Source: Parcubacteria group bacterium GW2011_GWA2_47_26
GTDB taxonomy: Bacteria; Patescibacteriota; Patescibacteriia; GWA2-47-26
Length of the DNA stretch: 46,291 bases
Direction of reading: 5' to 3'
Assembly (NCBI GenBank): GCA_001001705.1
Contig: LCOG01000003.1
Span: 1 to 46,291, forward strand
The notes under the pieces were generated by a model. That model saw nothing but the letters and a program-made list of their open reading frames with translations, searched no databases and had not been told where the DNA came from. Made by a program: the position numbers and the translations under genes. Position 1 is the first letter of the stretch. Each line of letters starts with the position of its first letter. Below are positions 14,451-45,820 of the stretch, piece by piece.

Positions 14451-14567
14451 CCCGTTAGAAGCAGGTCGCGGTCATCCCGTCCTGCTTATTATTATTTATA
14501 TTTGATAAATTGATCTTTCGCATAAATATCATGTCCAGCAACTATCGCGACCGCGGCTTCTAACGGG
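14451..14567. mobile_element. MITE-like element, family F (CCCGTTAGAAGC...GCTTCTAACGGG)
   Basis: ~20-bp inverted ends, AT-rich core, AT on both flanks; homologue at 38790-38905. Confidence 0.85.
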
Positions 14568-38789: not shown

Positions 38790-38905
38790 CCCGTTAGAAG
38801 CCGCGGTCGCGACATACTGGAAAGCTAAATATACGCAAAAGGTCTCTATTATAATACTAAATATTAATCAGCAGGGTAGCACGACCGCGACCTGCTTCTA
38901 ACGGG
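38790..38905. mobile_element. MITE-like element, family F, filling the dnaB-recR gap
   Basis: CCCGTTAGAAGCCGCGGTCG...CGACCGCGACCTGCTTCTAACGGG directly followed by the recR ATG. Confidence 0.85.
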
Positions 38906-42591: not shown

Positions 42592-42763
42592 GGCGATCCT
42601 CCTCCTCGGGTTGAGTCCCTTTTCTAAAGGGTTCCGAGGCGCTAGACTATATAAAAATATGGTCTAACGCCTCAAAACCAAGGAATGCCAACTGTTTTCA
42701 TTGCCCCTATAAACAAGTACCACCGCTATTCTACTAGGTTGGCAAATTTAGTCAATGGGCCTC

Positions 42764-42792
42764 TTGCACAGCTTAATATGCTAGTGTATGCT
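42764..42792 (+). promoter_or_regulatory. Sigma70-like promoter for the tRNA cluster
   Basis: TTGCAC-17 bp-TATGCT. Confidence 0.5.
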
Positions 42793-42812
42793 ACCAACAG
42801 TTTTGCGAGGCC

Positions 42813-42847
42813 AAGACTAAGCCTTGGGTCGCCCAAGGCTTAGTCTT
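42813..42847. repeat. Hairpin palindrome before the tRNA cluster
   Basis: AAGACTAAGCCTTGGG-TCG-CCCAAGGCTTAGTCTT. Confidence 0.8.
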
Positions 42848-42867
42848 AAACTGGTCCCGTACCGTTT

Positions 42868-42940
42868 GCGCCCATAGCTCAATTGGCAGAGCAGGGGCCT
42901 CTTAAGCCCAAGGTTCCAGGTTCAATCCCTGGTGGGCGCA
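42868..42940 (+). tRNA. tRNA-Lys(CTT)
   Basis: Acceptor GCGCCCA/TGGGCGC, D arm TAGCTCAATTGGCAGAGC, anticodon loop CTCTTAA, T loop TTCAATC. Confidence 0.92.
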
Positions 42941-43120
42941 AAAGGTACGGGGTAGACGCCGCAGCAAGATAGTTCTGGGCCTGCCCCGCATTTAACGCGA
43001 AGCGTTATAGTGCGGGGTTCGACCCACAGCGGATGCACCATAATAAAACTATTGCGTACTTGCGCTTACGCAATTATGCAATATCATAATAGCATGGCAT
43101 AGTCCCGTATAAATGCTTGG

Positions 43121-43192
43121 GCCTGGGTAGCTCAGTGGTAGAGCGCAGGCCTGAAGAGCCTGGCGTCGTCAGTTCGATCCTGACCCCAGGCA
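43121..43192 (+). tRNA. tRNA-Phe(GAA)
   Basis: Acceptor GCCTGGG/CCCAGGC, anticodon arm CAGGC-CTGAAGA-GCCTG, T loop TTCGATC. Confidence 0.92.
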
Positions 43193-43263
43193 TTTGTACG
43201 GGATAAATTTAACCTGAACAGTAGCACCCTGATAGGCATCGGGGTTCTCACTCTAGGCATTTT

Positions 43264-43447
43264 GCCTGTGTAGCTCAATGTAGTTAGAGCGAGGGATTTT
43301 CACCCGCCCAAATTTTTGGCTGGATAGCTCAGTTAGTTAGAGCGAGGGACTCATAAGCCCTAGGTCGGTGGTGCAATTCCACCTCCAGCCAAAAATTTGG
43401 GCGGGCAAGTAAGCCCTAGGTCGGTGGTGCAATTCCACCCGCAGGCA
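43264..43447 (+). pseudogene. Outer tRNA(CAT)-type gene split in its anticodon loop by an inverted-repeat element
   Basis: 5' half GCCTGTGTAGCTCAATGTAGTTAGAGCGAGGGA; 3' half TAAGCCCTAGGTCGGTGGTGCAATTCCACCCGCAGGCA; acceptor GCCTGTG pairs with CGCAGGC. Confidence 0.8.
43318..43391 (+). tRNA. tRNA with CAT anticodon (probably elongator Met), nested inside the outer copy
   Basis: Acceptor GGCTGGA/TCCAGCC, anticodon loop CTCATAA, T arm GGTGG-TGCAATT-CCACC. Confidence 0.88.
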
Positions 43448-43448
43448 T

Positions 43449-43533
43449 TAGACTTGTCCCCAAATAACATTCTGGCTAATTTCCCTGATTTTCGGCTACA
43501 AACCACTTCTCGGAATTCGCCGTAATTAAACCA
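43449..43533. mobile_element. Truncated family D MITE (inverted), cut off next to a family B palindrome
   Basis: TAGACTTGTCCCCAAATAACATTCTGGCTAATTTCCCTGATTTTCGGCTACAAACC...GGAATTCGCCGTAAT. Confidence 0.8.
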
Positions 43534-43540
43534 CTAACAT

Positions 43541-43594
43541 AAAAAGGGACCACTTCTAAATTTTGCTGCGCAAAATTAGAGGCGGTCCCTTTTT
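43541..43594. repeat. Family B palindrome
   Basis: Nearly identical to 22460-22515. Confidence 0.85.
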
Positions 43595-43683
43595 GATTCC
43601 GTTTCTCTCTGCAAGTACATCGTCTGGGGCCTGTTGCCGAATACCATTTCTACTGCAAGATAAGAATTTTGGCTGCGACTTTG

Positions 43684-43725
43684 TGAAACATTCTCAACAT
43701 ATACGCCGTATATGCTTCAAATGTT
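43684..43725. repeat. Family H palindrome copy 2, just past the 16S 3' end
   Basis: Reverse complement of 1868-1909. Confidence 0.8.
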
Positions 43726-43909
43726 GATGATCCGAAGTTATTCGGACCAATACATCTCCTTAGAAAGGAGGTGATCCATCCCCAGCTTCCGCTAGGGATG
43801 CCTTGTTACGACTTAGCCCCTCTCACGAGGCCTTCCTTGGACGCCGGCTCTTACCCCGGCGGCTTCAGGAATTCCCCGCTCGCTTGGCTTGACGGGCGGT
43901 GAGTACAAG

Positions 43910-44193
43910 CATCTTTTTCCATTGTTACCAATGGGATGGACTATATCTTCTTCCATCGTAGTGCGCAGGCTAAAGCCTGCAGCTACCACGTTTAGGAAGG
44001 TGAGCGTATAATTGTAGTTTGTTTTCCCCATTATGGGGCACCTACAATATAAGTCTCTACGGGGTCCGACTTTGGTCGGACTTCCCACGGTATTGACCAC
44101 AAAGTCTCACCAGACTGTTATGGCGTTCACCGTTATTAGCTCACTTTGCATCTCGACATTACTGCCGAGAGGGGCCTTGCGCACTTTGCGCTA
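43910..44193 (-). ncRNA. Group I intron in 16S (284 nt, no homing endonuclease ORF), near E. coli position 1388
   Basis: Interrupts CUCGGGU|CUUGUACUCACC; 5' exon ends in U, intron ends in G; P7 elements GUAGAGACU and AAGAUAUAGUCC; GGCCC internal guide. Confidence 0.88.
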
Positions 44194-45093: not shown

Positions 45094-45197
45094 AGCCCGC
45101 CTAAGTTTCGCCAAAACTAGATTATTCATTTATCAGCACTCTCTTAGGTTATGTTTTCGCCTTGTATTTCTTTCGCTTAGCGAAATTTAGGCGGGCT
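45094..45197. repeat. Family G palindromic insertion in the 16S V3 region
   Basis: AGCCCGCCTAAGTTTCGC...GCGAAATTTAGGCGGGCT around an AT-rich core. Confidence 0.8.
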
Positions 45198-45781: not shown

Positions 45782-45820
45782 CTTGCCCGCCCAAATTTTC
45801 TTACGAAAACTTGAGAGGGC
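45782..45820. repeat. Family G palindrome in the 16S leader
   Basis: CTTGCCCGCCCAAATTTTC-TTAC-GAAAACTTGAGAGGGC. Confidence 0.7.

Follow-up and report, generated by a model that had tools for sequence, protein, structure and literature searches.

How can a tRNA gene be cut in two at its anticodon by an insert that itself holds a complete tRNA gene, and what kind of element would produce such an arrangement? The question is raised by a locus at 43264-43447 (+) in a 46,291-nucleotide stretch of DNA from Parcubacteria group bacterium GW2011_GWA2_47_26 (contig LCOG01000003.1, here C3), which we call the window. The source assembly comprises 842 kb in 26 contigs and is 80% complete. An original prediction, made from the letters alone, had described a tRNA nested in a tRNA and split at the anticodon by about 107 bp, and the sequence itself, ARAGORN, and Rfam all confirm this arrangement. 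We consider it probable that the insert is a non-autonomous palindromic cassette, similar to a MITE (a miniature transposable element with inverted repeats), that brings a replacement tRNA into the cognate gene and leaves the outer gene as a relic.

The outer tRNA starts with its 5' half and junction (43264-43302, +). The half proper (43264-43296) reads GCCTGTG TA GCTC AATGTAGTTA GAGC G AGGGA and provides the acceptor strand GCCTGTG, the D arm, and the anticodon-stem strand AGGGA. It is followed by TTTTCA, the remnant of the outer loop with two extra T, whose last four letters form the TTCA junction (43299-43302). Directly after CA, the anticodon is split by the 107-bp insert (43303-43409). 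This insert opens with the 14-nt left arm CCCGCCCAAATTTT (43303-43316, +) and a single T, continues with the intact inner tRNA(CAT) (43318-43391, +; GGCTGGA ... CTCATAA ... TCCAGCC A), and closes with the complementary right arm AAAATTTGGGCGGG (43392-43405, +) and the junction CAAG (43406-43409, +), which recurs in the form CRAG in other nests and cassettes. The outer 3' half (43410-43447, +) then resumes as TAA GCCCT AGGTC GGTGG TGCAATT CCACC CGCAGGC A, that is, TAA, GCCCT, the variable loop, the T arm, the acceptor strand CGCAGGC, and the discriminator A.

The inner tRNA is of the elongator type (G1-C72), and its CCA is not encoded. Run on the inner gene, ARAGORN calls a tRNA(CAT) at 43317-43392, and Rfam places its tRNA family at 43318-43391 with 64 bits. 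Together with the inner acceptor stem, the arms form an inverted repeat of 22 nt that is 100% complementary, and in the predicted fold of the 184-nt locus, the anticodon arm of one cloverleaf encloses a second cloverleaf (-89.7 kcal/mol, z -7.05, with 0 of 200 shuffles as good). The arm itself is overrepresented: allowing up to two mismatches, the 14-mer occurs seven times in the window against 1.09 expected, a number reached by none of 100 shuffles. The anticodon and T arms of the two copies had been claimed to match and their acceptor stems to differ, and indeed 16/16 nt are the same in the 5' half stretch and 35/38 nt in the 3' half, the differences being compensatory acceptor-stem pairs and the D-loop. 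Within the 80% complete assembly, the inner gene is the sole non-initiator CAT tRNA found; a third CAT tRNA, a tRNA-Ile(UAU), and TilS (PF01171) were likewise sought there and none was found. The inner and outer CAT tRNAs may be Met or Ile2.

Two classes of known elements were put aside already by the original prediction, and the composition of the insert bears this out. A group I (or II) intron is rejected, as 74 of the 107 bp are tRNA, leaving 33 non-tRNA nt, and no intron family reaches the Rfam gathering score in the window. An integrative element that targets tRNA genes and duplicates part of them is rejected as well, since the insert contains no open reading frame (ORF) and both outer halves flank a complete inner gene.

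It is extremely unlikely that the locus is an assembly artefact, with a chimeric contig built from the reads of two strains or of two tRNA genes. Reads across both junctions had been proposed as a check, and public contigs give a split answer. Logan contigs from the runs of two studies match 43000-43363 and 43028-43365 without a single difference and thus span the left junction. One public contig covers 43409-43580, but the right junction (43392-43409), where a 30-nt exact direct repeat lies, is bridged by none among the contigs listed, a point in favor of an artefact. The public runs with this stretch are groundwater metagenome contigs only, with at most 0.45 of the sampled words (0.05 in RNA-labelled runs). 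Against an artefact, four further nests lie on other contigs of the same assembly, and the same architecture recurs in many independently assembled genomes, including G039 and similar nest-bearing genomes whose assemblies consist of one to three contigs.

Nests and cassettes in the source genome and its class

With introns allowed in ARAGORN and all tRNA flanks inspected, the source genome yields four nests besides that of the window. They hold a tRNA-Val(TAC) on contig C14, a tRNA-Leu(CAG) on C16 (where the D arm is the site of the split, and the outer copy retains its anticodon arm and an encoded CCA), a tRNA-Ile(GAT) on C7 (whose outer copy has one further 35-nt hairpin), and a tRNA-Pro(TGG), also on C7 (with inverted cassette feet and a decayed outer 3' half). 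In every nest, inner and outer copies agree in anticodon and orientation, and the assembly has no second intact gene with the anticodon of the inner copy.

Related helices are not confined to nests. A leader-trailer helix directly at the ends is found for 12 of the 36 tRNAs of the source genome, including tRNA-Lys and tRNA-Phe of the window; this count leaves out an ARAGORN call without Infernal support at C5:61050, as well as Thr-GGT and Tyr on C15, whose scores are due to a neighboring repeat and gene. These hairpin-armed tRNAs form a separate class: none of the 12 has an encoded CCA, compared with 13 of the 24 others (p 0.002), and in relatives' loci (which were chosen for their cassettes) the corresponding figures are 4/27 and 25/41. 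The initiator tRNA on contig C2 (C2:5716-5792) has short arms (GCGCAT/ATGCGC), and an initiator-like 5' fragment (AGCGGGGTAGAGCAGG...) lies just upstream (C2:5660-5900); judged from these letters, the locus may be a sixth, decayed nest.

To follow the arrangement beyond this genome, 401 genomes of the class were surveyed for the junction pattern (TTCACCCS, 85-110 nt, SGGGCRAG), which gave 62 matches in 47 genomes against 10 for a reversed control. According to ARAGORN, 27 of the 62 carry a tRNA, in 22 genomes. These 27 consist of 15 from a first set of loci and all 12 of a further set picked since their printed start looked tRNA-like; of the other 35 matches, 18 were retrieved and hold no tRNA, and 17 were not retrieved. 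The search for arm-tRNA-arm units in the source genome and its relatives, which had been suggested as a check, is thus positive on both counts. The cargo comprises Met, Val-TAC, Val-CAC, Leu-CAG, Leu-TAG, Ile-GAT, Pro-TGG, Pro-GGG, Arg-CCG, and Arg-CCT, and it lies in either orientation relative to TTCA..CAAG. Where the flanks can be read, the tRNA-bearing matches sit in relics of a tRNA of the same type and orientation. In a panel test of the 15 first loci, about 13 had the cargo or a tRNA for the same amino acid as top match in at least one flank, and for most of the other 12, relics are readable in the flanks.

When the locus was compared by BLAST with 61 genomes of the class, a nested tRNA-Met with the same junction appeared in G048, G030, G053, and G006. 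The outer copies are in various states: that of G048 has lost its 5' half and has a T-loop insert in the 3' half, and that of G030 has lost its 3' half. G176 even holds a triple nest of three tRNA-Leu layers with identical arms. Many families of the class have such cassettes, and it is from this distribution that we infer their mobility.

Insertion into DNA or removal from RNA

If the cassette enters as DNA, empty and filled versions of one locus should exist, and such a case is found for a Val(CAC) cassette in the genus g82, at another locus than that of the window. With the same flanks, G173, G206, and G086 have a plain tRNA-Val(CAC), whereas G237 has a cassette in the D-loop (GGACGAT TA GCTC AGG-CTTG[arm-tRNA-Val(CAC)-arm']TGAA-GTTAGAGC...) and a further double hairpin in the T-loop of the outer copy. 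G291 has a nest and one more outer relic at this locus. The empty and filled states at an orthologous locus reveal a DNA insertion polymorphism. Between the inner gene and the plain resident of g82, the acceptor stem is the sole difference and the entire body is shared, which parallels the window; the outer body of G237 belongs to a different lineage. Shared bodies with differing acceptor stems point to gene conversion or recombination between layers, which would also explain why the outer halves in the window look fresh.

Decay of the outer copy is common among relatives. In G094, G132, G222, G122, G143, G039, G247, and G237, the outer gene has two to four inserts at fixed points, namely the D-loop (AGC|TG|GTTA and GGTTA|...|GAGC), the anticodon loop, and the T-loop (GGTTC|...|ATCC), and at least one of the inserts contains a tRNA. 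Two further site-specific hairpin inserts were seen in dead tRNA copies of relatives: a D-loop hairpin (GGTTA|CCCGCC..GGCGGG|GAGC) at loci L025, L038, L044, and L060, and a T-loop double hairpin (TGCGCC..GGCGCA TCCGCC..GGCGGA) at L002, L064, and L063. Both recur across different tRNAs and families.

The junction follows a rule of its own. In the window, C14, C16, and C7 Pro nests, a resident X-CA-Y has become X-TT-CA-[CCCS...SGGG]-CA-(A/G)G-Y, and only the C7 Ile nest has a precise junction (CTGA|...CAGG|TAA). Joined as X-CA-Y, the outer halves are called by ARAGORN as Met(CAT) in the window, Val(TAC) on C14, and Leu(CAG) on C16; the first two calls are obtained with this join alone, and in the D-arm nest of C16, Leu(CAG) is called in nearly all join variants. 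The removal of 43303-43409, which had been put forward as a check, gave a mixed answer: with this stretch alone taken out, the loop has 9 nt and the call makes no sense, and Met(CAT) is recognized in the outer gene only once the two extra T are dropped as well. Read by eye, about 20 of 31 cassettes follow the rule of CA becoming TTCA..CRAG, with five exceptions and six cases that could not be read. This set of 31 combines the 27 tRNA-bearing matches with G006, G053 (locus L005), C16, and the C7 Ile nest. In the deviants G176 and G039, the insertion lies behind a native TTCA, and no TT has been added.

The arms of these 31 cassettes pair almost perfectly (381 Watson-Crick, 4 G-T, 8 A-C, and 2 other pairs), and their sequences vary widely between genomes, with the feet alone conserved (TTCA-CCCS...SGGG-CRAG). 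The original prediction had offered, as its second alternative, that the arms allow the inner tRNA to be processed from the transcript; a comparison of G-U with A-C mismatches showed no excess of G-U for the tRNA strand and hence no sign that an RNA helix is under selection. The terminal repeats include CCCCGTTAGA... and CCCGCC.... One terminal repeat, CCCGTTAGA(A/G), is common to the arms of Val and Leu cassettes and to repeats that hold no tRNA. In the source genome, this non-tRNA family is abundant (about 100-118 nt; 46 left and 42 right ends), and G357 has 36 such ends; among its eight complete non-tRNA copies, four are flanked by 4-bp direct repeats (TTTA, TTGA) and three by TTCA/CAAG. 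The window's own arm type has a handful of clear relatives only. The elements resemble MITEs in being shorter than about 300 bp, ORF-free, bounded by terminal inverted repeats, present in many copies, and polymorphic for presence and absence; a target-site duplication of fixed length was not found.

Could the arms instead be ordinary leader-trailer processing helices, and the nests the result of local duplication, recombination, and gene conversion without any mobile element? The helices at the ends of 12 of the 36 source tRNAs would fit, as would the absence of a detected transposase and the identity of inner and outer bodies in the window and G291, which speaks for recombination between copies. 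However, tandem duplication yields genes side by side rather than nested, and the insertion sites are restricted to a few fixed points in the D-loop and the anticodon loop. Processing helices also do not account for the same feet and related arms on different tRNAs and on non-tRNA repeats in many families, for cargo in either orientation relative to the feet, or for the sharp borders of the empty and filled alleles. We thus regard this explanation as unlikely.

The proposal that a tiny palindromic element has captured a whole tRNA, making its insertion harmless, is upheld by the four additional nests, the spread over the class, and the empty and filled loci, as well as by the decayed outer copies and the related arms on MITE-like repeats. 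In the mechanism that we favor, conserved feet and variable, perfectly pairing arms enclose a complete tRNA gene that has neither a promoter of its own nor an encoded CCA. Through an enzyme acting in trans, this cassette would enter as DNA into a resident tRNA gene of like kind and orientation, at its anticodon loop. Since only 0-10 nt separate arm and tRNA, and a scan of 42600-43700 found no promoter-like site on the + strand, the cassette would be read from the promoter of its host gene, a dependence that would also explain the shared orientation of cargo and target. The usual enzymes of tRNA maturation (RNase P, a 3' nuclease, and the CCA-adding enzyme) would then release the inner tRNA, which would serve as the working tRNA, with the outer gene reduced to a relic. 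Gene conversion between the adjacent copies would be the most likely process keeping the outer middle identical to the inner one, and the outer acceptor stem would still betray the older lineage. The match between cargo and target may, at least in part, reflect survivorship, because a cassette that hit an essential tRNA of another kind would kill the cell.

More tentatively, and with a likelihood below even, one may see the cassettes as selfish, gene-drive-like tRNA genes that home into the cognate tRNA by way of its sequence or structure, rather than as random insertions filtered by survival; the resident would be broken and the cell made dependent on the newcomer. If so, repeated rounds would produce Russian-doll nests such as that of G176 and chimeric, "cleaned-up" genes such as those of g82, and in these tiny genomes one cassette after another would bring about a horizontal turnover of tRNA genes.

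Several points nevertheless weigh against a replacement cassette. Aiming at essential single-copy genes is unusual for an element unless the insertion is harmless. The junction (CA to TT-CA-[cassette]-CA-RG) matches no standard target duplication, and no transposase tied to the arms was found in the 80% complete genome, the incompleteness of which also makes the status of the inner genes as sole copies, and the apparent lack of a splicing endonuclease, provisional. Both outer halves in the window are still well formed, so that gene conversion or a recent event has to be assumed. Finally, removal at the RNA level would also fit, and the genome, of only about 1 Mb, encodes an archease, an RtcB (536 aa), and a DEAD-box helicase in a row (C4:29553-32914; L052:785-4146). 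This archaeal/eukaryote-like RNA ligase set follows MreC-like and membrane-protein ORFs. RtcB occurs in 47 of the 401 genomes of the class and is found in 7 of 22 cassette genomes versus 40 of 379 others, a roughly fourfold enrichment (p 0.008) in which relatedness is uncontrolled.

A search for the missing transposase gave one candidate. The source genome has a single Y1/HUH ORF (IS200-like, RAYT-like; 199 aa) at C5:68001-68600 (L051:1363-1962), which is flanked by 20-nt inverted repeats with the palindrome GTGGCCTAGCCAC and by no CCCG arms. It was rejected as the enzyme of the cassettes, as the flanking repeat differs from their arms. Likewise, assignment to the repetitive extragenic palindromes (REP) or their doublets (REPINs) that are paired with a REP-associated tyrosine transposase (RAYT) was rejected, since the Y1_Tnp ORF is not flanked by cassette hairpins. 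TnpB was not found in the source genome, nor was any long element bounded by the arm motifs, which occur there just as separate small elements flanking genes. The palindrome GTGGCCTAGCCAC was also seen upstream of a tRNA-Thr on C15.

The RNA-level alternative deserves a closer look. It holds that the insert is a protein-spliced bacterial intron, cut by an endonuclease at the foot of the helix and rejoined by archease and RtcB; the outer tRNA would be functional and the inner one a passenger, similar to the C/D box RNAs in archaeal tRNA introns. Besides the ligase genes, it can draw on the related hairpins in the single 16S gene, on relatives' D-loop hairpins (GGTTA|...|GAGC) that can be removed precisely, on the conserved feet and covarying arms, and on the outer Leu copy of C16 with its retained anticodon arm and encoded CCA. 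On the other hand, in the nests of the window, C14, and C7 Pro, there is no one continuous piece whose removal would give back an anticodon loop of 7 nt, the arms lack a G-U excess, and the outer copies of relatives are truncated or full of inserts.

The machinery and the signals of splicing fare no better. The tRNA_int_endo (EndA) profile has no match in the 80% complete genome, although it detected its control in four archaea, and RtcB was not detected in 15 of the 22 cassette genomes, several of which are 99-100% complete. A 172-aa protein encoded upstream of the archease and RtcB was considered as a nuclease and dropped: it has no Pfam or NCBIfam match and is probably a membrane protein, being hydrophobic and located after an MreC-like fragment. 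A bulge-helix-bulge (BHB) motif was rejected too, because no consistent pairing could be drawn by hand (5'-UUUU-3' against 5'-CAAG-3' gives three pairs and a mismatch) and the spacing to the anticodon stem varies between nests. An archaeal-type intron was thus rejected for want of a BHB motif and a detected endonuclease and for the 9-nt loop left by excision, despite the presence of RtcB.

Removal was also simulated for 229 hairpin candidates of the source genome. It yielded the three nested tRNAs of C3, C14, and C16 only, each with an intact inner copy, and no interrupted tRNA that is a sole copy; as the screen required exact 8-nt arms starting with CC[CG], the C7 Ile and Pro nests were missed. 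Taking together the lack of a detected endonuclease and BHB motif, the many cassette genomes in which RtcB was not detected, and the lack of a sole-copy interruption, we judge the intron explanation very unlikely and retain the replacement cassette.

Neighboring features of the window

The nest does not stand alone in this part of the window. Upstream of it, a tRNA-Lys(CTT) sits in the same kind of hairpin (42856-42951, +; arms CCCGTACCGTTT / AAAGGTACGGG), followed by a tRNA-Phe(GAA) in a hairpin (43104-43202, +; arms CCCGTATAAATGC / GCATTTGTACGGG), and CCA is encoded in neither. Between them, the stretch 42952-43040 ends in ...GGGGTTCGACCCACAGCGGATGCACCA and is joined by ARAGORN, with introns allowed, to the tRNA-Lys; by its letters, it resembles what decay has left of the 3' part of a tRNA-like gene whose CCA was encoded. 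Just before the nest lies a decayed copy of a tRNA 3' end (43247-43262, +), which is 81% like the end of tRNA-Phe and possibly represents the relic of an older outer tRNA-Phe. Directly 3' of the outer tRNA (43449-43533, +) stands a truncated member of a family of palindromic repeats that measure 145 nt (CCCCAAATAA...).

Arms without tRNA cargo had been reported from three places, two of which stand. The 16S leader contains a solo right arm with CAAG (45782-45799, -), whose 18 nt are identical to 43392-43409, and the 16S V3 region contains a 100-nt hairpin (45096-45195, -) with related arms (CCCGCCTAAATTTCGC / GGCGAAACTTAGGCGGG), in a region with 89 nt extra relative to the Rfam model. The third place, thrS, has a single, partnerless arm with one mismatch in a ThrRS-like ORF, at a frequency expected by chance.

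The 16S gene, which is the only one in the source genome, shows further peculiarities. An insert of about 210 nt (44121-43910, -) lies between GGTGAACGCC and CTTGTACTCACCGCCCGTCA, and the true end of the gene is near 43770 (GGATCACCTCCTTTCTA) rather than at 44136, as the Rfam match suggests. In addition, TCTCTCTGCAGGTACATC in the leader (45840-45823, -) pairs with GATGTACTTGCAGAGAGA in the trailer (43621-43604, -) at 17 of 18 positions, which is likely the 16S processing stem. No 23S gene follows downstream of the 16S in the window, where a hairpin terminator is located at 43541-43594. A palindromic family of about 100-118 nt, with ends CCCGTTAGAAG, occurs on many contigs of the source genome (in the window at 14451-14567 and 38790-38905); its members directly adjoin ATG starts in one fixed orientation and have AT..AT flanks.

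Significance and comparison with known systems

The nested arrangement is real and recurrent and apparently undescribed: in the literature searched, we found no description of bacterial nested tRNAs or of hairpin cassettes that bear a tRNA. tRNA genes are usually regarded as fixed, vertically inherited housekeeping genes. In the source genome, at least 5 of the 36 look like incoming cassettes that replaced a resident, and perhaps up to twelve. The cassettes would thus exemplify a strategy by which a mobile element can live in an essential single-copy gene without splicing, namely by bringing a spare, and they offer a possible route for the horizontal exchange of tRNA genes. They would also account for odd tRNA annotations in metagenomes, such as half tRNAs and the "introns" of gene finders. 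Moreover, they provide a testable system for tRNA-directed DNA insertion, and the nested precursor is a natural substrate on which to study how RNase P and the 3' nuclease choose between two stacked tRNA structures.

Among known elements, MITEs and the Rickettsia palindromic elements come closest in form. These are noncoding, about 100 nt long, present in many copies, and able to sit in essential genes. The cassette shares their short, palindromic, multicopy form; however, they are free of genes and tolerated in the product, whereas the interior of the cassette is a whole working tRNA that replaces the broken gene, and no simple duplication of the target is seen at its junction. Integrative elements and phages that use tRNA genes also have a tRNA as target, often at the anticodon loop, and keep up the tRNA supply of the host. 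They span kilobases, bring their own integrase gene, and repeat no more of the tRNA than its 3' part, giving a tRNA, the element, and half a tRNA; the cassette, in contrast, gives a half, a whole, and a half, with no integrase.

Group I introns share the position in the anticodon loop of bacterial tRNAs, but roughly 200 nt or more are required for a ribozyme to splice itself, compared with 33 non-tRNA nt and no Rfam intron match here. REP and REPIN sequences combine a variable hairpin with a conserved tetranucleotide at its foot, form long hairpins as doublets, and are mobilized in trans by a RAYT. The cassettes are similar in their variable hairpin and conserved foot, and they differ in bearing a tRNA (REPINs carry no gene) and in that the sole RAYT-like gene of the genome is flanked by another repeat.

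In eukaryotes, the Dada transposons of fish insert site-specifically into tRNA genes, near the anticodon and the D-arm boundary, and often replace the flanking target by a fixed sequence (PMC8869645). The cassettes likewise aim at anticodon and D-arm sites and replace flanking target sequence. The Dada elements are autonomous, encode a transposase, use multicopy targets, and bring no replacement tRNA (PMC8869645), whereas the cassettes are bacterial, non-autonomous, and equipped with one.

In archaea, finally, BHB introns, split and permuted tRNAs, and the intron transposition of Thermoproteales provide short inserts at several tRNA positions, with related inserts in different tRNAs and with complementary arms that hold tRNA halves together (PMC10714607). 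These archaeal introns are removed by EndA at the BHB motif, and the interrupted tRNA is the only copy (PMC10714607). Measured against this account, the cassettes differ in having no BHB motif, in the loop not being restored, and in a genome in which EndA was not found; above all, an intact copy of the interrupted tRNA is always supplied.

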